Origin: an uncultured Candidatus Saccharimonas sp.
Lineage (GTDB): Bacteria; Patescibacteriota; Saccharimonadia; Saccharimonadales; OMJO01
Assembly (NCBI GenBank): GCA_943353165.1
Contig: CALRAM010000001.1
Location: forward strand, 45,483 to 109,482
Direction of reading: 5' to 3'
Length of the DNA stretch: 64,000 bases
Numbering within the stretch: position 1 is the stretch's first letter; the number at the start of each line of letters is the position of its first letter. Positions 693 through 29,532 of this stretch are shown here, piece after piece. A program made the translations under genes and the position numbers. The notes beneath the pieces are model-generated. The model was given only the letters and a program-made list of their open reading frames with translations, did not search any database and was not told where the DNA came from.

Positions 693-1086
693 CACAAAAA
701 AATGGGCACTAGGAGGAATATTATTGGCAAGTACTAGTTATCTTGCAGGTGTATTGACTGCACCGAAAAGCGGAAAATCAACTAGAAGCATAATCAAGAT
801 AAAAACATACAACACTAAAATGACTACAGAAAAACAACTAAAAATTTACTACAGCCAATTAAACGAATTAATCGAAAGTGGTTCTGCTCAAATTAATACA
901 ATAAAACTTGCTTCAGATAAAGATTTGAATGATTTACTTTCAAAAGCCGTAATTACAAAAAATTTGGTCAGAAAAGTTCTAAATGATATACACGATAGAG
1001 GCGCAGATAATGAAAACCTACAAAATGCAGGTGCAGAGGCCAAAAAGTCTATACAATATTTGAAAAAGTATATTTCTAGTAAATAG
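682..1086 (+). CDS. YtxH-domain protein
   Basis: Motif WALGGILLASTSYLAGVLTAPKSGKSTR matches the GxxxGxxxG...APKSGKETR YtxH signature. Start moved to the internal ATG at 682. Confidence 0.55.
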   Translation: MKNNTKKWALGGILLASTSYLAGVLTAPKSGKSTRSIIKIKTYNTKMTTEKQLKIYYSQLNELIESGSAQINTIKLASDKDLNDLLSKAVITKNLVRKVLNDIHDRGADNENLQNAGAEAKKSIQYLKKYISSK

Positions 1087-1167
1087 TTTTTGTTGTAATT
1101 ATTAGCGTCGCGATATGCAGGTAACTACTCTACAATAAGAGTTGTTAATATTTGAGGATAATAAGAG

Positions 1168-4100
1168 TTGAAAACAAATAGTTTAAACCCAAGTGACTAT
1201 GTGCATTTGCATAATCATACCCAGTACAGTTTGTTAGATGGCCTAACAAAAGTTCCTGCCTTAATGGATTTTATAAAAGAAAAAGGCATGAAAGCTGTCG
1301 CAATAACTGATCATGGGACTTTATCAGGTCTTATTGAATTTTATAAAGAAGCAAAATCTTCAAGACTAAAGCCTATTTTAGGAATAGAGACATACGTCGC
1401 ACCAAGATTACATACAGATAAAGACCCAGCAAAGGATAAATTAAATAATCACTTGATTATTTTAGCCATGAACCAGCAGGGTTACCGTAATCTCATGAGG
1501 CTAAGCACCATAGCTAACCTAGATGGGTTTTATTACAAACCCAGAATAGACCATAATTTATTAGAAAAATATAATGAGGGTTTAATAGTCCTTAGTGGTT
1601 GTATTGGTGGTGAAGTAGGAGACGCGCTTCGACAAGATCAATATGATGCAGCAAAAAAAACTGCCCAATGGTACAAAAAAGTTTTTGGCGACAGATATTA
1701 TCTAGAGATTCAAGACCATGGGCATAAGCTTCACCCAAAGAGCTGGAAAGAACAAGTTAAAGTTACAGAAAGTACCTTCAGGCTTGCCAAAGAACTTGAA
1801 ATACAAGCAGTTTTAACATGTGACGCTCATTATTTGAAACATGAAGACCAGCAAGCTCATGAGATATTATTGTGTGTTCAGACTGGTTCTTTTTTAACTG
1901 ACGAGAAAAGAATGTCTTTGAAAGATTTTGATTTAAATGTAGTAGATCCAGTCGATCTAATTAAACGATGGGGTAGTTCCAATCCAGAAATAATTACTAA
2001 TTCTTTAGTAATAGCAGAAAGATGTAACGTAAGTTTAGACTTTGGAAAGATATTAATCCCAAAATTTGACTTGCCTAAAAATGAAACAGAAAAAACGTTT
2101 ATGGACAGATTGGTGTATCAAGGATTAACTAACAGATATGCAAATATATCCGAAAAAAAATCTGAAAAGATGTCAATAGAAGAAGCAAAAAAATTATTGC
2201 CAAAAAAAGTTTTGTCTAGAGCATCGTACGAAATGTCAGTTATAGATAAAATGGGATTTAACGGCTATTTTTTGATTATTGCTGACTTTATAAAATGGGG
2301 AAAATCGCAACGCATAGTATTTGGACCTGGACGGGGCTCGGCCGCTGGATCAATAATCGCATATGCGCTAAAGATTACAGAGTTAGACCCTTTAGAATAC
2401 GATTTATTGTTCGAGCGTTTCCTAAATCCTGACCGTATATCTATGCCAGATATTGATATTGATATCCAAGACAACAGAAGAGATGAAGTTATAAAGTATT
2501 GTATACAAAAGTATGGAGAAAATAGGGTCGCCAATATAGTCACATTCGGTCGTATGGCAGCTAGAAATGCCGTCAGAGACGTCGCTAGAGTCTTGCAAGT
2601 ACCTTATGCAGATGCTGATAGGTGGTCAAAAATGATTCCCGCACCAATCCAAGGCAGGCATATACCTTTGAGCAAATCTTTAACTGCCGACAAAGACCTA
2701 AAACAAGTATACGAAAATGACGATCAAGCTAAAATTGTTTTTGATTTGGCAATTCAGATGGAGGGGACTATCAGAAGTCATGGTGTTCACGCAGCTGGAG
2801 TGGTGATTGCGCCAGACGATATAGTTTTGTTCGTACCACTAGAAAAAGCTCAAAAAGGCGTTGTTGCCACTCAGTACCCGATGGGTCCAATAGAGGATTT
2901 AGGTTTGCTAAAGATGGATTTTTTGGGATTATCAAACTTGACTACTATAAACAACGCGCTAAGAATTATCAAAAAAGTCTACAATAAGAGCATAGACATA
3001 AATACAATACCTCTTGACGATTTGAAAACTTACCAATTATTGCAGAGGGGCGACACTACAGGTATATTCCAATTTGAATCTCAAGGTATGAAAAGGTACC
3101 TAAAGGACCTAAAGCCAACTGTTTTTGATGACATTATAGCCATGGGCGCCCTATACAGGCCTGGTCCACTAGGCGCAGGCCTAACGCAGCGTTTTATAGA
3201 CAGAAAAAACGGAAAAGAAAAAATAGAATATGCCCACAAAAGCATGCGTTCGGCTCTCGGTTCTACCTACGGAGTTTTGGTATATCAAGAACAAGTTATG
3301 CGTATAGCCAAAGATATGTGTGGTTTTAGCGGAGGTGATGCTGATACCCTGAGAAAAGCCATAGGAAAGAAAAAAAGAGATGTTATGGCTAAAATGAAAG
3401 AGCAATTCATAACCGGTGCAATAGAAAAATCAAATGTTGATCGTGATTTTGTGGAAAAATTCTGGAAGGACCTTGAGGGGTTCGCCGATTATGCTTTCAA
3501 TAAATCTCACTCTGCTTGCTACGGACTTATTTCTTACCAGACAGCTTATTTAAAAGCGCATTACCCAGCTGCATATATGGCTTCTTTAATGACTAGCGAT
3601 TATGACGATACAGATAGGTTGGCTATAGAAATAACAGAATGCAAAAAAATTGGCATAGACGTTCTAGCGCCAGACATAAATGAGTCTTTTTTAGAATTTG
3701 CCGTTGTTCCAAAAGAAAAACAAATAAGGTTTGGCTTAGCCGCCATAAAAAATGTAGGTGCTGGCGCAGTTGATGAAATACTAAATGTCAGACCAACTGA
3801 AGGTTTCAAGAATTTACAAGACTTTTTTTCTAAAGTTAATAACAGGATTATTAATCGAAAAGTACTGGAGAGTTTAATTAAATCTGGTGCATTTGACAGA
3901 TTTGGCGAACGTAGCTTTCACCTAGCAAATTTAGATATATATATTTCGTATGCCTCTAGAAAACAAAAACAATTTTCTAGTGGTCAAACTGACTTATTTG
4001 GAAATTTGCTAGAGGAAACAACAGATTCATTACCTCAGCTAAAACTAGACTATACTGCGCAACCTATACCACTACGGGAACAATTAATGTGGGAACGTGA

Positions 4101-4800
4101 ACTACTAGGACTGTATCTAAGCCAGCATCCATTAAAGGCATTTGAAGGCGTTTTATCAGAATACACAGTTCCATTGAACACTCTAAGTTCTGAACATGAC
4201 AACAAATCTGTGAGCGTAGGAGGAAGCATTGTAGAAATAAGAGAAATTACTACAAAAAATGGGCAAAAGATGGCTTTTGTAAAAATTGCAGATCAGTTCA
4301 AAGATATTGAATTGGTTTTATTTCCTGGCATATACCAACAAACTACTGGAATATGGGAACGCGATAGAGTAGTTATAGCGAAAGGAAAGATTAACGCAAA
4401 AGATAGGAATGGTCAAAAGGGTGACGAACTAAAAATATTAGTTGAAGATGTCAGAGAGGTTACACACGAGCAAGCCGCTGCATACGAAACTACAGGTAAA
4501 AAAATAAAAACTCCAAAACCTTCTAAACTATCAAAAAAAGTTATTACAGAAAAATCACATTCAGAATCAGAAAAAACTAAGAGACTGTATCTAAAACTTG
4601 AGAACAGTAACGATCAAAAAAAACTTTTAGACCTAAAGATTCTACTAGATAAAAATGTTGGTCAAACGGAAGTTGTTTTGGTTTTAGGAGATAGTGCCAA
4701 TAAGCAAATTATTAGATTACCAGTCCGTGTTGATTCTACGAGGGATACTTTGAATCTATTTGGTGCGACAATCGGAAAAGAAAATGTAATCTTGCAGTAA
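1168..4800 (+). CDS. dnaE: DNA polymerase III alpha subunit
   Basis: 1210 aa. PHP domain HLHNHTQYSLLDG, polymerase core motifs and an OB-fold C-terminus. TTG start with GAGGA about 9 nt upstream. Confidence 0.95.
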   Translation: MKTNSLNPSDYVHLHNHTQYSLLDGLTKVPALMDFIKEKGMKAVAITDHGTLSGLIEFYKEAKSSRLKPILGIETYVAPRLHTDKDPAKDKLNNHLIILAMNQQGYRNLMRLSTIANLDGFYYKPRIDHNLLEKYNEGLIVLSGCIGGEVGDALRQDQYDAAKKTAQWYKKVFGDRYYLEIQDHGHKLHPKSWKEQVKVTESTFRLAKELEIQAVLTCDAHYLKHEDQQAHEILLCVQTGSFLTDEKRMSLKDFDLNVVDPVDLIKRWGSSNPEIITNSLVIAERCNVSLDFGKILIPKFDLPKNETEKTFMDRLVYQGLTNRYANISEKKSEKMSIEEAKKLLPKKVLSRASYEMSVIDKMGFNGYFLIIADFIKWGKSQRIVFGPGRGSAAGSIIAYALKITELDPLEYDLLFERFLNPDRISMPDIDIDIQDNRRDEVIKYCIQKYGENRVANIVTFGRMAARNAVRDVARVLQVPYADADRWSKMIPAPIQGRHIPLSKSLTADKDLKQVYENDDQAKIVFDLAIQMEGTIRSHGVHAAGVVIAPDDIVLFVPLEKAQKGVVATQYPMGPIEDLGLLKMDFLGLSNLTTINNALRIIKKVYNKSIDINTIPLDDLKTYQLLQRGDTTGIFQFESQGMKRYLKDLKPTVFDDIIAMGALYRPGPLGAGLTQRFIDRKNGKEKIEYAHKSMRSALGSTYGVLVYQEQVMRIAKDMCGFSGGDADTLRKAIGKKKRDVMAKMKEQFITGAIEKSNVDRDFVEKFWKDLEGFADYAFNKSHSACYGLISYQTAYLKAHYPAAYMASLMTSDYDDTDRLAIEITECKKIGIDVLAPDINESFLEFAVVPKEKQIRFGLAAIKNVGAGAVDEILNVRPTEGFKNLQDFFSKVNNRIINRKVLESLIKSGAFDRFGERSFHLANLDIYISYASRKQKQFSSGQTDLFGNLLEETTDSLPQLKLDYTAQPIPLREQLMWERELLGLYLSQHPLKAFEGVLSEYTVPLNTLSSEHDNKSVSVGGSIVEIREITTKNGQKMAFVKIADQFKDIELVLFPGIYQQTTGIWERDRVVIAKGKINAKDRNGQKGDELKILVEDVREVTHEQAAAYETTGKKIKTPKPSKLSKKVITEKSHSESEKTKRLYLKLENSNDQKKLLDLKILLDKNVGQTEVVLVLGDSANKQIIRLPVRVDSTRDTLNLFGATIGKENVILQ

Positions 4801-4802
4801 GG

Positions 4803-5687
4803 TTATTTAATTACTCCAGTTGTTGTGCTAAGAATAAAGCCAGCCAGTATTATTAGTAGTAATAATAGGTCAAATAGGGGATGTTTCATTAGAAATTTAC
4901 GACTACTTTTTATACTTAATTTTATGTTCCATGAATGTTTTAGTAATAATAGTAATAACCCTAGCGCTGTTATTATCCCAACAAGAAATGATATCCAAGG
5001 AGTTTTTCCTTTCGTAAGCTCTTGGGCTTTTGTTATATTTTGTTGAGTCGTAGCGATGTAAATGCTATTTTTTGTGCTTGATGATAGCGTAGGTTTAATA
5101 GTTTCTACAGAAGGCTGACCAAAGAAGGCAACTATTATAGTTTGGGGGCCTTTATCCCCAAAATTTGCACTTTTAGCAAATCCAAAACCTACTTCTGTGA
5201 ATACGCTACTTAGTAAAACATCTTTGTGGGTCTGGCTGTTCATCCAGCCGTATATGACGTTTTTACTAGTAGAAAAACCATAAGCTAGGTTTTCGCCAGC
5301 AGTATTATAAAGATATCCGGTTTCTTTTATGAATAACCATGGTTGTTGGCCATCTGGTGTTTCGTGGGACCAGTAATTTCTGGCGACCATATCATTGGCT
5401 TTGTTTTGGGCTGCTGTATTAAGTTTTGCGTTTAGTGTCAGATCTTTTTGACCAACTAGATTGCGTTGCGCATTTGTGGCTTGTAGGAGAGTCGTGTCTT
5501 TAGCATCTATAGTATAAGAAAGAACACTATGTCTTGGAAGTTTGTTGGTGTGTATTCCTCCAAAATATAATCCAAAAACTGATATGAGCAAAATTGGTAT
5601 GTACGGCCAGTAAGCTTTTAGGTATGGCTTTGTATGTTTATGTTTTGGAGATTTTACGTGATGTTTACGTATTATTTTTACAGGCAT
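4803..5687 (-). CDS. CAP/SCP (PR-1-like) domain protein with N- and C-terminal TM segments
   Basis: CAP-family signatures NYWSHETPDG...GENLAYGF...WMNSQTHKDVLLS...EVGFG. Hydrophobic stretches at both ends. Confidence 0.7.
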   Translation of the reverse strand: MPVKIIRKHHVKSPKHKHTKPYLKAYWPYIPILLISVFGLYFGGIHTNKLPRHSVLSYTIDAKDTTLLQATNAQRNLVGQKDLTLNAKLNTAAQNKANDMVARNYWSHETPDGQQPWLFIKETGYLYNTAGENLAYGFSTSKNVIYGWMNSQTHKDVLLSSVFTEVGFGFAKSANFGDKGPQTIIVAFFGQPSVETIKPTLSSSTKNSIYIATTQQNITKAQELTKGKTPWISFLVGIITALGLLLLLLKHSWNIKLSIKSSRKFLMKHPLFDLLLLLIILAGFILSTTTGVIK

Positions 5688-26363: not shown

Positions 26364-27182
26364 ATGTATAGCGGTACAACATTAAATAAAACATCTGGTC
26401 GTATTCTAGGTACACACCAAAAAATAGACAGAGTAGCTCGAAAGCATTTGTCTGTTATTTTAGAAGATAACAACGTTTTTCCTAAAGCAAACGCCATACT
26501 GCATTTTGAAGGCAAAAATGGCCCCGATGGCATCAAACGCAAGAGTCCCGCAAAGGACGAGCTGTGGCACTATTATAGTCCTTTTGACGACGATGATTCG
26601 GCCTTGCTAGATCTGATAAGAAACCATTACGACAAATTAGTCACAGAACTGCGTGCAAATAACGTTGAGCGAGTAGCATTCGAAGCTGCCTGGCTGTCCC
26701 ACGCTTTGGTTGACGGCCTAACGCCTGCGCATCATTACCCATATGAAGAAAAACTTTCCGAACTAAGGGGAGGCGAAGGTATGGAAAGCCGTGATTCTGT
26801 AAAAGATAAACTAATAATGCCAGGCAATACGCGTAGACAAAAGGTCAAAAACAATTGGAAAATGTGGGGACCAAAAGGATTGTTTACTACTCATGGTTTA
26901 TTCGAGATGGGTGTGGCCACAATTATGGCACCACTGGCCATGAAGGATGCAATGCCAACCGAATCTGATATAAATGAGCTTCTAGATATAGGCCTGTTAG
27001 AACGTTTTAAGAGAACAGCCAGAGAAATCGCAGTTTTAGATATGTACCATAATTATTATAAAAAAGGTTGGACACCCAAGTTTGCACACCAGGTTCGTCA
27101 TCAACTGGGCCCTGTAATAGTTAAAACAGTAACATTAGCATGGTATAGCGCCTTGATTGACGCCGGCAAAGTTAACAAATGA
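26364..27182 (+). CDS. hypothetical protein (His-rich putative metal-binding motifs)
   Basis: 272 aa. No confidently recognisable family; AWLSHALVDGLTPAHHYPYEE segment. Confidence 0.45.
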   Translation: MYSGTTLNKTSGRILGTHQKIDRVARKHLSVILEDNNVFPKANAILHFEGKNGPDGIKRKSPAKDELWHYYSPFDDDDSALLDLIRNHYDKLVTELRANNVERVAFEAAWLSHALVDGLTPAHHYPYEEKLSELRGGEGMESRDSVKDKLIMPGNTRRQKVKNNWKMWGPKGLFTTHGLFEMGVATIMAPLAMKDAMPTESDINELLDIGLLERFKRTAREIAVLDMYHNYYKKGWTPKFAHQVRHQLGPVIVKTVTLAWYSALIDAGKVNK

Positions 27183-27709: not shown

Positions 27710-27789
27710 TCATATTTTACTAATTACGCAAAATTTAGTACAATAACAGAGTGGTATAAGGAAAAAACATATGGATCTGTCGTATGTTA

Positions 27790-27830
27790 TGCGGACGACC
27801 GTGGCTGAAGGTTCATCCTATACGCCAAGT
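27790..27830 (+). pseudogene. degenerate tRNA-Leu relic (acceptor/D 5' 14 nt fused to a T-arm-like segment)
   Basis: GCGGACGACCGTGG matches the tRNA 5' end. The following CTGAAGGTTCATCC resembles the T-arm GTGAAGGTTCAAGTCC. Confidence 0.3.
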
Positions 27831-27850
27831 ACGATACAATTTATAATTAC

Positions 27851-27890
27851 GCGGACGATCGTGGAATTGGTAGACACGCTAGCCTTAGGA
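27851..27890 (+). pseudogene. tRNA-Leu 5' half (acceptor through anticodon loop) lacking a matching 3' half
   Basis: GCGGACGATCGTGGAATTGGTAGACACGCTAGCCTTAGGAG is 38/40 identical to the 5' 40 nt of the intact tRNA-Leu, then diverges into repeat copy 1. Confidence 0.5.
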
Positions 27891-27998
27891 GTGAAACCCG
27901 CCTGTGGCGGGTTGCAAGGTCGGAAGCCTGGATTGCGCAAGCAACCAAGCTGAGACGGGGTCGCAACCGATTGGACTATGTCCAATAGGATTGTGACA
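27891..27998 (+). repeat. structured GC-rich repeat, copy 1 (core CCCGCCTGTGGCGGGTTGCAAGG plus nested hairpins)
   Basis: Shares the 23-nt core hairpin with copies 2-5. Has a GGTCGCAA...TTGTGACA stem with an extra inserted hairpin ATTGGAC-TAT-GTCCAAT. Confidence 0.6.
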
Positions 27999-28131
27999 GT
28001 GCCGCAAGGCGTGAAGGAGAGACCCGCCTGTGGCGGGTCGCAAGGTAGACAACTCTTGCGAACTGGTTTGCAAAGATGTTGCTACGGGGTCGCTGAAAGT
28101 GACCAAGTCCTTTTCAAAAGCCTCTTGAACC
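27999..28131 (+). repeat. structured repeat, copy 2 (tRNA-Leu variable-arm-like 5' box GTGCCGCAAGGCGTGAAGG plus three hairpins)
   Basis: GCGTGAAGG-AGAGACCCGCCTGTGGCGGGTCGCAAGG; hairpin 2 CAACTCTTGCGAAC-TGG-TTTGCAAAGATGTTG; hairpin 3 GGTCGCT-GAAA-GTGACC. Confidence 0.6.
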
Positions 28132-28151
28132 TTCATAATATTATACAGTGC

Positions 28152-28236
28152 GCGGATGTGGTGGAATTGGTAGACACGCTAGCCTTAGGAGCTAGTGCCG
28201 CAAGGCGTGAAGGTTCAAGTCCTTTCATCCGCACCA
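28152..28236 (+). tRNA. tRNA-Leu(TAG), class II with long variable arm and encoded CCA
   Basis: Acceptor GCGGATG/CATCCGC; anticodon stem CTAGC/GCTAG with loop CTTAGGA; variable arm GCCGCAAGGCG; T-arm GAAGG-TTCAAGT-CCTTT; 3' ACCA. Confidence 0.85.
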
Positions 28237-28245
28237 ATCAAAAAA

Positions 28246-28268
28246 TGCTCTCTTTTGAGAGCTTTTTT
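28246..28268 (+). terminator. intrinsic terminator after tRNA-Leu
   Basis: GCTCTC-TTTT-GAGAGC followed by TTTTTTT. Confidence 0.6.
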
Positions 28269-28286
28269 TGATTTGTTCTGGAAGGT

Positions 28287-28422
28287 CTTGAACCAAACCC
28301 TAAGGCGTGAAGGCGAGAGCCGCCTGTGGCGGGTTGCAGGGAAACCTTTCAGATTATCTACTTGTTGATAGTATGAAAGTTTTGGGGTCGCGGAACGTGA
28401 CCAAGTCCTTTCATCCGCACCA
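28287..28422 (+). repeat. structured repeat, copy 3, ending in an exact tRNA-Leu 3' end (AAGTCCTTTCATCCGCACCA)
   Basis: CTTGAACC...CCTAAGGCGTGAAGG-CGAGAGCCGCCTGTGGCGGGTTGCAGGG; hairpin 2; GGTCGCG-GAA-CGTGACC; then a 20-nt exact match to the tRNA 3' terminus. Confidence 0.65.
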
Positions 28423-28428
28423 AAACAA

Positions 28429-28455
28429 GTGACCCCGAAAGGGGTCTTTTGTTTT
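28429..28455 (+). terminator. intrinsic terminator after repeat copy 3
   Basis: GACCCC-GAAA-GGGGTC followed by TTTTGTTTT. Confidence 0.5.
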
Positions 28456-28467
28456 GGTGGTCGAAAT

Positions 28468-28650
28468 GCCCAGAACCTTCACCCTAAAAAGGCGTGAAGG
28501 GGAGAGCCGCCTGTGGCGGGTTGCAAGGCAACTTTACAGATTTCAAACTTGTTTGAAGTATGTAAATTGAGGGGTCGTGGAACGTGACCGAGCCCCCTGT
28601 CTTTCTGACAAGAAGGCCAGGCAGGACGGACAGGTTTCATTCACACCAAC
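28468..28650 (+). repeat. structured repeat, copy 4 (degenerate 3' end with extra insertion)
   Basis: GCCCAGAACC...AGGCGTGAAGG-GGAGAGCCGCCTGTGGCGGGTTGCAAGG; hairpin 2; GGTCGTG-GAA-CGTGACC; a diverged tRNA-like tail GGTTTCATTCACACCAA. Confidence 0.55.
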
Positions 28651-28750: not shown

Positions 28751-29329
28751 TCATACAAATTTGTCCGCTAGTTCTTTTGTCTGATAATTCTTAAAATAAT
28801 TTAAGATATCATTCAAATCACTGCCAATAAACACAAAATCACTAAAAGGCACTTTTGAGAAATCTTTCTGTTGCATTTCATCTAGGAATTTTATGAGCGT
28901 ATCGTAAAAACCATCATAGTTAAAAATAGCAATCGGTTTGTCGTATAGTTTATTTACTTTACCACCAACAATTTCTCCAATTTCTTCAAATGTTCCGTAG
29001 CCGCCGGGCAAAATAATAAATGCGTCTGATTCAAAAACTATACGATGTTTGCGGTCGTCCATAGTTTCTTCTAAGTATGTTTTATCAAGTCCATCAAATG
29101 CTACATAGCCTTTGGTAACTGCCATCAAATCTTTTGCCATCACGCCAGTCAAATCATTGCCGCCAGCGTCTTTATAGGCTTTAGCAAGTTCAGACATCAT
29201 CCCATAGTCTGTTCCACCATAAACAATACCCATTTTTTCATTAGCAAGTCGTTCGGCAACTTCTATAGTCAAATCAATATATTCCTGCCCAACTGACAAA
29301 GAAGATGTAAGAGTTATACCCACTTTCAT
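28751..29329 (-). CDS. LOG-family protein (TIGR00730, cytokinin riboside 5'-monophosphate phosphoribohydrolase-like)
   Basis: PGGYGTFEE signature, GxGxxG-like MGIVYGGTDYGMM, Rossmann-like fold pattern. Start trimmed to MKVGIT. Confidence 0.8.
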   Translation of the reverse strand: MKVGITLTSSLSVGQEYIDLTIEVAERLANEKMGIVYGGTDYGMMSELAKAYKDAGGNDLTGVMAKDLMAVTKGYVAFDGLDKTYLEETMDDRKHRIVFESDAFIILPGGYGTFEEIGEIVGGKVNKLYDKPIAIFNYDGFYDTLIKFLDEMQQKDFSKVPFSDFVFIGSDLNDILNYFKNYQTKELADKFV

Positions 29330-29406
29330 AAATCTAATTATACAACAATTACCCAAAAATCTTTTCAGCCAAAAACTAAAAACCCTACAGAGCAGTTCAG
29401 CGAGTC

Positions 29407-29532
29407 GCCCAGAACCCTAAGGCGTGAAGGGGGGACCCGCCTGTGGCGGGCCGGACGTAAACAAACTCTTGAAAACTGGTTTTCAAAGATGTTTTTCTGG
29501 GTGAGATGAGAAGGGGGCTCATTGTATAGGGA
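29407..29532 (+). repeat. structured repeat, copy 5 (in the divergent LOG/hisS intergenic region)
   Basis: GCCCAGAACCCTAAGGCGTGAAGG-GGGGACCCGCCTGTGGCGGG plus hairpin 2 of the copy-2 subtype (AAACTCTTGAAAAC-TGG-TTTTCAAAGATGTTT). Confidence 0.55.

Follow-up and report, generated by a model that had tools for sequence, protein, structure and literature searches.

The locus described here raises the question of how a single tRNA gene came to be surrounded by broken copies of itself, and of what the repeated core is that interrupts these copies. The locus lies in a 64,000-nucleotide stretch of DNA from an uncultured Candidatus Saccharimonas sp. (contig CALRAM010000001.1), called here the window, and is centred on the gene for tRNA-Leu(TAG). 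We found that the repeated core is a structured module, named M, of 86-112 nt and three hairpins, which is not derived from tRNA. The copies of M form a family of mobile insertions that is structured and strand-specific, and the locus has accumulated five copies of M together with dead tRNA copies, terminators and cargo. The explanation that we consider probable is that tRNA-Leu(TAG) is an insertion hotspot with two layers, one formed by the dead tRNA copies and the other by the mobile module M inserted in them.

One tRNA gene and five copies of a repeated core

The window is bacterial and encodes RecG, RsmD, HisRS, trigger factor, ClpP and RNA polymerase; its RsmD is identical to a protein assigned by NCBI to a metagenome-assembled genome (MAG) of Candidatus Saccharibacteria. 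ARAGORN and Rfam, each alone, found one tRNA in the 64 kb, the intact tRNA-Leu(TAG) at 28152-28236, and this was the only region recognized as tRNA by the Rfam family RF00005. None of the tRNA fragments and copies of M of the window was called as tRNA by ARAGORN or RF00005. Between 27800 and 28600 the GC content was 0.50-0.575 versus 0.30-0.45 in the flanks, and only short overlapping open reading frames (ORFs) of 53-97 aa were present. The 14-mer CCGCCTGTGGCGGG occurred five times in the window, always on the + strand, versus 0.08 occurrences expected by chance, and the covariance model described below gave exactly five matches (U1 to U5), the fifth being degenerate at its 3′ end. A single intact tRNA-Leu(TAG), five copies of the core and a GC-rich region with no credible ORF had already been reported in a preliminary description of this DNA, with which these results agree.

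Fold and novelty of module M

An alignment of 25 copies of M showed three helices, and a covariance model (R1) was made from this alignment; cmsearch with R1 gave 70 matches over the collected loci, which are designated here by L numbers. The layout of M is UG-AGA, a first hairpin (H1, 8 bp), GCAAGG, a long and variable second hairpin (H2), GGG(G) and a third hairpin (H3, 6 bp), where H1 is GACCCGCC-UGU-GGCGGGUC and H3 is GUCGCN-NNN-N′GUGAC. In 38 copies, standard pairing was found in 96.5% of the cells versus 70.1% in shuffles (0 of 500 shuffles were as high), changes on both sides were seen in 25 of 28 pairs versus a mean of 16.3 in shuffles, and the covariation score was 0.638 versus 0.159 for shuffled alignments and at most 0.111 when the partners were slid by 1-3 columns. 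The H1 stem had at least six different sequences; one G·U pair of H3 was invariant (32 of 32 copies), and M has invariant unpaired nucleotides besides. Taking into account that G·U and U·G pairs far outnumbered A·C and C·A pairs (66 versus 4), the strand that folds is the tRNA-sense strand, as RNA or as single-stranded DNA (ssDNA).

No family of Rfam 15 matched M at the gathering score in the window and 13 loci. At E≤10 there was only noise (weak CRISPR-DR and miRNA matches), the remaining matches being to tRNA and, in other loci, to RNase P. ARAGORN and Rfam showed no similarity of M to tRNA, and there was no inverted repeat between its two ends. A scan of viral contigs with two patterns gave no M-like sequence, so there is no evidence of a phage origin for M, and blastn against phage and plasmid collections gave matches to tRNA alone. 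M was not found described in the literature searched. The preliminary description had listed a new family of structured RNA-like elements among its possibilities, and both the structure and the novelty of such a family are supported by the strong covariation and by the lack of an Rfam match.

Distribution and insertion sites

With strict patterns, 14 loci were obtained from the one-genome-per-species collection: 9 MAG contigs of Saccharibacteria/Saccharimonadales, 1 identical contig binned as Doudnabacteria and 4 chance matches in GC-rich coding sequence. In the metagenome collection, the strict patterns found 28 contigs with M, 28 of 28 in tRNA context. Uniqueness of the core to the locus, an outcome that had been contemplated beforehand, is contradicted by the homologues in 9 genome contigs of Saccharibacteria and 28 contigs from metagenomes. 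When L009, the contig binned as Candidatus Doudnabacteria (JAEUSE010000035), was set against L008 and L010, its tRNA-Gly unit proved identical in sequence to the one in Saccharibacteria MAG-260, a genome of the same study; this is probably a binning error and not spread across phyla.

The orientation of M was that of the nearest tRNA in 42 of 42 copies. The neighbours were 16 tRNA species, or 17 with the tRNA-Ser(CGA) described below, and the flanks of M always copied the neighbouring tRNA, so that the tRNA-like flanks varied with the neighbour. The base before M was always G, the base at −2 usually G and the base at +1 usually C, and two target bases were gone in every case. The commonest site was the T-loop of many tRNAs, with the junction GG/TT/C (the lost bases stand between the slashes). 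M was also found in the anticodon loop (GG/AG/C and GG/GC/C) of tRNA-Leu(TAG) in L016, L021 and L046 and of tRNA-Pro(GGG) in L027 and L040, in the anticodon stem (U1 of the window and L041), in the variable arm (L003 and L049) and in the D-loop of tRNA-Gln in L043. Finally, in L013, L024, L027, L028 and L043 it stood within H3 of another M (GGG/GU/YGC), a nested insertion that wrecks the H3 of the host copy. Most tRNA copies bearing M were truncated and lay beside an intact paralogue. Decayed modules also occurred (U5 without H3, truncated copies in L035 and L041), and many copies lay at contig ends, as is expected of multi-copy repeats.

Mobility of M

The near-identical strains L025 and L044 provide a filled and an empty site. 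The intact tRNA-Ser(CGA) of L044 reads GAGGG-TT-CGAATCC; in L025 the same region reads GAGGG, the 88-nt M and CGAATCC, in a gene that is otherwise full-length and whose flanks are near-identical (3 mismatches). By comparison with L044, the filled site had no target duplication, direct repeat, terminator or inverted arm. This pair indicates that M is mobile on its own and that it replaces two nucleotides. In addition, the modules found in tRNA-Ala and tRNA-Ser of MAG CAYGHF01 were ~95% identical.

Two familiar classes were rejected. A miniature inverted-repeat transposable element (MITE) does not suit the lack of terminal inverted repeats in M, nor the 2-nt loss without duplication in the empty/filled pair; a tRNA-derived short interspersed element (SINE) does not suit a module without tRNA similarity whose flanks vary over 17 tRNA species. 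The SINE- or MITE-like element proposed in the preliminary description therefore holds as regards mobility, given the empty/filled pair and the nested copies, and fails as regards origin, given the absence of tRNA similarity, terminal inverted repeats and duplication.

Recombinase genes were present near some units. In L043, a large serine recombinase (Resolvase, Recombinase and Zn_ribbon_recom domains; 555-2057, − strand) lies 130 nt downstream of tRNA-Gln(CTG), an upstream pseudo-copy of which carries nested modules in its D-loop, and in L030 and L039 a Xer-like recombinase lies 0.8 kb from the unit. The link of these recombinases to M is probably coincidental.

Dead tRNA copies in the window

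The features of the locus are collected in Table 1.

Table 1. Features around the tRNA-Leu(TAG) gene of the window, in order of position.
Feature	Position	Strand	Evidence
Relic: tRNA-Leu 5′ end (GCGGACGACCGTGG) fused to T-arm remnant (CTGAAGGTTCA)	27787..27850	+	direct repeat
5′ part (positions 1-39) of dead tRNA-Leu copy	27851..27891	+	no ARAGORN call
Module copy U1, 106 nt, long-third-hairpin variant	27892..27997	+	cmsearch 46.4 bits, E=2.5e-10
Variable arm and T-stem 5′ strand of dead copy (AGTGCCGCAAGGCGTGAAGG)	27998..28017	+	100% identical to 28194-28213
Module copy U2, 86 nt, in T-loop of dead copy	28018..28103	+	cmsearch 98 bits, E=1.7e-24
T-loop and T-stem 3′ strand remnant (CAAGTCCTTTT...), then inverted T-arm (CTTGAACCTTCA, 28124-28135)	28104..28135	+	
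Promoter-like site TTTTCA-17-CATAAT ahead of intact tRNA	28111..28139	+	consensus match, putative function
Intact class II tRNA-Leu(TAG), encoded CCA end	28152..28236	+	ARAGORN; Rfam RF00005, 60.5 bits
Long palindrome centred on terminator loop	28212..28294	+	inverted pairs 28233-28252/28257-28276 and 28212-28227/28279-28294
Direct partial copy of variable arm and T-stem 5′ strand (CAAACCCTAAGGCGTGAAGG region)	28295..28313	+	direct repeat
Module copy U3, 88 nt	28314..28401	+	cmsearch 79 bits
Exact 22-nt direct repeat of tRNA 3′ end (CAAGTCCTTTCATCCGCACCAA)	28402..28423	+	same as 28216-28237
Second extended terminator hairpin, including CACCA end	28418..28459	+	stem 28431-28446
Inverted T-arm copy (GAAATGCCCAGAACCTTCAC), loop, direct T-stem 5′ strand	28463..28500	+	z=4.6, 0/100 shuffles reach score
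Module copy U4, 88 nt	28501..28588	+	cmsearch 76.7 bits
Decayed tRNA 3′ end with additional inserted hairpin (…GGTTTCATTCACACCAACC)	28589..28650	+	
LOG/SLOG-family gene, strain-variable cargo between U4 and U5	28751..29356	−	PF03641, 7e-23
Inverted-arm remnant (CCCAGAACC) and direct T-stem 5′ strand (CTAAGGCGTGAAGG)	29405..29430	+	direct repeats
Module copy U5, H1 and H2 kept, H3 lost	29431..29512	+	cmsearch 38.9 bits, E=2.9e-8

In the dead copy upstream of the gene, a perfect 31-nt block (27861-27891, the same as 28161-28191) is preceded by 10 nt with 2 mismatches and a 1-nt indel, and the match extends to tRNA position 39 and so takes in a single base of the anticodon stem's 3′ strand. This is the 5′ half noticed earlier, which ends shortly after the anticodon loop; identity is found in ~38 of the 41 columns of the alignment, where 38 of 40 had been counted. 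U1 stands in this 3′ strand of the anticodon stem, and a homologous insertion occupies the same tRNA position in the tRNA-Leu(GAG) of L041. The inverted T-arm that follows U2 is complementary in 12 of 12 positions to 28208-28219.

The shorter upstream relic of the preliminary description is also real. It is followed by a spacer that holds a TATAAT box, and its undeleted form was found in L003 (4149-4358), where a module stands at the junction of variable arm and T-stem in a pseudo-tRNA, after which comes the spacer CGCCAAGTAC..TTTATAATTAC, the same as that of the relic. Judged by this comparison of sequences, the relic arose by deletion from a pseudo-tRNA that had borne a module.

Downstream of the gene, the order of the first unit is AAGGCGTGAAGG, the 88-nt insert (28314-28401) and the 22-nt repeat of the tRNA 3′ end. 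The interruption (about 90 nt) and the tRNA 3′-terminal match (20 nt) noted previously were thus confirmed with slightly different lengths; what has to be corrected is the part replaced, which is not the T-loop but its TT only, with C56 onward kept. The DNA between the two 22-nt repeats is 164 nt long and has no ORF. The left arm of the palindrome around the terminator is made of the tRNA T-arm, the acceptor 3′ strand, CCA and an A-tract, and its right arm of a U-tract and an inverted T-arm copy, the terminator stem being at 28247-28262.

Partial tRNA copies, terminators and cargo

Four relatives with RsmD proteins 68-72% identical to that of the window have the order RsmD, tRNA-Leu(TAG), HisRS and no M at the locus (4 of 4), and in two of the four just 127-174 nt lie between the RsmD and HisRS genes. 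This bare locus indicates that the 1.9-kb spacer of the window is a lineage-specific accretion. The spacer consists of mini-elements (tRNA 3′ end, terminator and inverted T-arm), the LOG cargo and insertions of M.

A closer comparison was possible with the strain variant L003, whose RsmD protein is identical to that of the window and whose arrangement nevertheless differs. The upstream pseudo-tRNA of L003 is a different one, with M at the variable arm. Its intact tRNA is placed where the window has the dead copy with U1 and U2, and the promoter of that intact tRNA now precedes the M-bearing dead copy in the window. L003 is without U3, and its tRNA is directly followed by a terminator equivalent to 28424-28459 of the window. 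By this alignment the window has a 186-nt insertion, formed by a terminator, an inverted T-arm, a direct T-stem strand and U3, and bordered by the 22-nt repeat of the tRNA 3′ end. U5 is 98.7% conserved in L003.

The cargo of L003 is a DUF2268 gene (3372-4040, −) and a CBU_0592-family gene (4820-5152, +) instead of LOG, and homology between the window and L003 starts again ~80 nt before U5. The pseudo-tRNA-Leu of L003 (4149-4205) has the anticodon arm CTAGTTTTAGGAACTAG and not the resident CTAGCCTTAGGAGCTAG. The CTAGTTTTAGGAACTAG arm is that of the tRNA-Leu(TAG) of other Saccharibacteria lineages (L051 10557-10641, L053 11351-11435), which suggests that segments of tRNA genes may have been exchanged between lineages.

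The same design was seen over the loci. Downstream units have the order extended terminator hairpin, inverted T-arm, short loop, direct T-stem 5′ strand and tRNA 3′ end; they stand in tandem and the least decayed one adjoins the tRNA. Upstream units are tRNA 5′ parts followed by a new promoter and then by the intact gene. Across loci the palindrome has its centre in the terminator that follows the tRNA, and the right arm contains an inverted U-tract, TGG, the acceptor strand and the T-arm, including an intact TTC loop. Ungapped 12-mer matching of the inverted arms did not beat the controls, and local alignment against shuffled controls was used instead; with it, 18 of 29 units of the T-loop type had a significant inverted T-arm (z≥3.2). 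The terminators of the window (28233-28276 and 28418-28459) and of most loci have stems made of A-tract, U-tract and the tRNA CCA paired with TGG, so that a terminated transcript would carry a fully base-paired 3′ end.

Units of this kind also exist without M. A 107-nt mini-element of the same design, without M and flanked by 21-nt direct repeats, is present in L044 and absent from L025, and further partial tRNA copies without M occur. The repeats of upstream-type copies start only ~5-10 nt ahead of the mature 5′ end. Their promoters differ, and the duplications mostly do not include the promoter. In L033 the end of the repeat coincides with the terminator U-tract. In L019, three units follow tRNA-Lys(CTT) in tandem with three repeats of the tRNA 3′ part, and the second and the third of the units with a module are separated by a RelB/YafQ toxin-antitoxin pair (3701-4233). 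Downstream of tRNA-Gly(GCC) in L008, a CBASS-like cassette (767-3448; DUF3892, SMODS plus AGS_C sensor, SLATT_4 effector) lies between modules at 93-178 and 3689-3778, the second of which has a ~45-nt insertion in the H1 loop.

Other copies of tRNA 5′ ends, cut in the D-loop, carry inserts that are not M (L019 at ~2350-2455 and 3015-3143; L010, − strand, ~350 nt upstream of tRNA-Gly; L013 at ~60-380). The two inserts of L019 are related and share GTA(A/G)AA(A/G)TATGAAGC, and in L013 a hairpin-rich insert (TCCGCCGGCTGGCGGAGGCTAGCACGGTCGCCACGGCGAC) follows the tRNA 5′ copy. Further families of tRNA-invading elements may therefore exist.

Two observations concern other parts of the loci. A conserved 272-aa ORF (26364-27182, +) between RecG and RsmD is syntenic in all related loci; it could not be placed with confidence in any Pfam family, its sole match, to zinc-dependent phospholipase C, being below threshold. 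With the full-length Rfam model, the RNase P RNA of L040 (4365-4889) spans 525 nt with 171 bits and that of L027 (7147-7525) spans 379 nt with 254 bits; the former seems to carry ~150 nt extra, in which R1 detects no M.

Likeness to known systems

Small non-autonomous repeats of bacteria include MITEs, palindrome-associated elements derived from IS200/IS605 (PATEs), REP/BIME, Correia elements and Rickettsia palindromic elements. M is like them in being ~100 nt long, multi-copy, hairpin-rich and without ORF, in breaking assemblies and in being presumably mobilised in trans. It is unlike them in that it has neither terminal inverted repeats nor target duplication, with a 2-nt deletion instead, in that it has three independently covarying hairpins and invariant junction bases, and in that it targets only tRNA loops and its own H3, strictly in the tRNA sense.

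Folded single-stranded hairpins are the targets of several systems, such as integron attC sites, IS1111-attC, group IIC-attC introns and the CTXφ-type IMEX. The units described here form an imperfect palindrome with an inverted and a direct T-arm and G/TT at the T-loop, but their GTTCRAN does not match the integron core consensus GTTRRRY. Such a unit could fold into a hairpin that mimics a duplex target, and the cassette-like toxin-antitoxin and defence cargo, the newest unit beside the anchor and the strand-specific folded site are further likenesses. In contrast to attC systems, no intI was found in any locus, there is no R/L box consensus, the anchor is a tRNA T-arm and M occupies the would-be crossover position.

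R2-type retrotransposons are eukaryotic elements of several kb that encode a reverse transcriptase/endonuclease and insert in the sense orientation in rRNA genes. M resembles R2 in its structural-RNA gene target, its sense orientation, the putative co-transcription with the host gene and the small deletion (2 bp for R2Bm), and differs from it in having no ORF, with no reverse transcriptase seen near M.

Proposed explanation and its alternatives

In the two-layer explanation of the hotspot, M would be non-autonomous and would be recognized through its fold in the single-stranded sense strand, as RNA or ssDNA. An enzyme acting in trans would cut on both sides of the dinucleotide that follows a G, and M would take the place of this dinucleotide. 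Copies of M would survive only in dispensable tRNA sequence, namely pseudo-copies, redundant isoacceptors and other M. As for the partial tRNA copies, their source would be small elements that integrate or duplicate, supplying a terminator and rebuilding the tRNA 3′ end as they do so.

Several points weigh against this explanation. No transposase, recombinase or reverse transcriptase consistently adjoined M, and a Pfam scan of 40 neighbouring ORFs showed no recurring gene beside it; considering that no mobilising gene is linked to M, we purely infer the mobilising activity. To our knowledge, neither transposition nor site-specific recombination, as they commonly proceed in bacteria, removes two target nucleotides. 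The weakly defined target motif cannot alone explain the restriction to tRNA-like sequence and to M; the survivorship in a gene-dense genome is an assumption, and M as a transcribed RNA is putative. Since the loci were collected by searching for M, the association of M with inverted-arm units is biased, and the large collections were scanned with canonical H1 sequences only, so that the counts given above are limited to such copies.

A bolder possibility, which we put forward only tentatively, is that M represents a new class of structured nucleic acids that move by an RNA-centred mechanism in these ultra-small bacteria. In it the fold, either as catalytic RNA or as the sole element recognized by a host enzyme, would direct the two-nucleotide replacement into exposed loops of tRNAs and of other M. 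An RNA route fits the repeat borders at transcript ends, the self-priming terminator hairpins and the abundant stable RNAs that are targeted. The zig-zag of sense, antisense and sense tRNA copies would then be the footprint of a hairpin-primed copying of tRNA precursors.

It is unlikely that M is an RNA-level mobile element in the stricter sense of a new ribozyme, or of a substrate of cleavage and ligation, which enters stable RNAs and returns to DNA by reverse transcription and recombination. The choice of exposed loops in abundant structured RNAs, in sense orientation, and the compact fold with its invariant unpaired nucleotides and invariant G·U would suit it, as would the upstream-type repeats starting shortly before the mature 5′ end behind differing promoters and the L033 repeat, which stops where a transcript is expected to end. 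However, no reverse transcriptase lies nearby, and group II introns are reported to be absent from Patescibacteria (PMC13011429). No known ribozyme family matched at E≤10 and no self-cleavage motif was recognised; in particular, inspection showed no hammerhead or hairpin ribozyme core in M. Moreover, the inverted arms copy an intact T-loop and not one bearing M, and the insertion in tRNA-Ser(CGA) left the intergenic flanks unchanged, which a DNA event fits equally.

We also regard as improbable a remnant of an IS200/IS605-type ssDNA transposon (PATE- or REP-like), in which a HUH (Y1) transposase encoded elsewhere would read H1 and H3 and insert M into single-stranded tDNA. As in PATEs, there are subterminal hairpins by both ends, H1 starting 1-2 nt from the 5′ end and H3 finishing at the 3′ end; the fold and the orientation are strand-specific, M has neither inverted terminal repeats nor target duplication, and a G·T mismatch conserved within a hairpin is the kind of feature that a structure-specific protein could recognize, as in IS608 and ISDra2. 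The insertion point of IS200/IS605 elements lies 3′ of a fixed tetra- or pentanucleotide and no target bases are lost, whereas insertion of M costs two bases and the 5′ flanks of its copies share G or GG only. The cleavage sites would fall at the hairpin foot and not 10-19 nt off, and H2 covaries too, which a pair of transposon ends does not need. Neither tnpA nor tnpB was found in ~350 kb of loci, and no IS605 or ωRNA family of Rfam matched M.

That the locus holds only att-site scars, left by repeated integrase-type integration and excision at the tRNA-Leu 3′ end with the core as a passive attP arm, seems very unlikely as an account of the whole. The first part of this idea, which comes from the preliminary description, stands: the 186-nt insertion missing from L003 is bordered by 22 nt that repeat the tRNA 3′ end exactly (21 nt in the M-less mini-element of L044, three repeats in L019), each unit brings its own terminator, the least decayed repeat is beside the tRNA, and the cargo varies by strain. 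The units around M accordingly resemble miniature, integrase-less relatives of the integrative elements that target tRNA or tmRNA genes, including tycheposon-like islands, in which the tRNA is restored by the incoming element (PMC9897764, bioRxiv 10.1101/2020.12.28.424599). With these elements they share a displaced tRNA 3′ end as a direct repeat (22 nt in the window), tandem accretion, small cargo genes and strain variability. They differ in size, being as short as ~110-190 nt, in the lack of an integrase (none in the 164-nt insert of the window, the cargo elsewhere being LOG, toxin-antitoxin or CBASS-like genes), in an inverted T-arm that continues the terminator palindrome and in that M is a separate insertion found also without any repeat.

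What the scars do not explain is the conserved core. M entered a full-length tRNA-Ser(CGA) without direct repeat, terminator or arm; it stands in D-, anticodon-, variable- and T-loops and in other M; near-identical modules occur in different tRNAs of one genome; and all three hairpins covary strongly with no adjoining integrase. By inspection, the crossover dinucleotide of a serine recombinase would stand at both junctions, which was not seen, and a tyrosine-integrase crossover at the T-loop edge disagrees with anticodon-loop insertions at the opposite loop edge.

It is also highly doubtful that M is a structured small RNA of benefit to the host, kept on a tRNA scaffold for stability or processing and spread by tRNA gene duplication without being selfish. 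The strongly conserved structure and the upstream-type copies behind tRNA promoters, among them the M-bearing dead copy of the window, would agree with it. Against it, M is missing at the locus in 4 of 4 relatives, copies decay (U5, L035 and L041), nested self-insertion destroys the H3 of the host copy, near-identical strains differ in its presence, and the many copies at contig ends are as for multi-copy repeats.

Introns were considered as well. Group I introns have a P3-P9 core and at least ~200 nt, with a 5′ exon ending in U and a terminal G, and they were rejected because M has 86-112 nt, no RF00028 match at E≤10, a 5′ flank ending in G and a last base C. Group II introns have six domains with domain V, GUGYG...AY ends and usually a reverse-transcriptase ORF, and are excluded by the size of M, its three-hairpin fold and the lack of an Rfam match; if the ends are read as group II-like GUGAG...AC, by inspection the removal of M would not restore the tRNA. 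A bulge-helix-bulge intron is rejected for a bacterial host in which the ends UGAGA.../...GUGAC are not complementary (inspection) and two T-loop bases are gone.

The phenomenon closest to M is the movement of introns between tRNA genes of archaea, a transposition that is itself unexplained: PMC4090602, citing Fujishima 2010, reports similar introns at many positions of different tRNAs in Thermoproteales. It is hardly conceivable that M is itself such a tRNA intron, self-spliced or spliced by proteins, in spite of this precedent, of the L025 tRNA-Ser(CGA) broken by M alone and of a structured, sense-oriented M in tRNA loops, for the host is bacterial, M is too small and has no group I or II features, its ends form no bulge-helix-bulge by inspection, its three-hairpin fold is conserved, the host copies are mostly truncated beside an intact paralogue, and the two lost target nucleotides mean that removal of M cannot restore the tRNA, T54-Ψ55 included. 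The splicing of the fragments into functional tRNAs, foreseen earlier as a possible outcome, is unsupported for the same truncation and missing T-loop nucleotides.

Significance

In the Candidate Phyla Radiation, whose genomes are considered to hold little mobile DNA, M is an addition: a well-supported family of structured elements with no match in Rfam 15. We know of no described bacterial element that enters after G in tRNA loops, replaces two nucleotides without duplication and targets itself, and a new enzyme or ribozyme may be involved in its insertion chemistry. In practical terms, M breaks assemblies and its pseudo-tRNAs mislead annotation; its copies are at the same time sensitive strain markers, and the system could yield a site-specific insertion tool for genetically intractable organisms. 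For the Saccharibacteria, the tRNA genes are landing pads for tiny terminator-bearing elements and single-gene cargo (toxin-antitoxin, CBASS-like, LOG), and such landing pads are a route of gene acquisition for minimal genomes.

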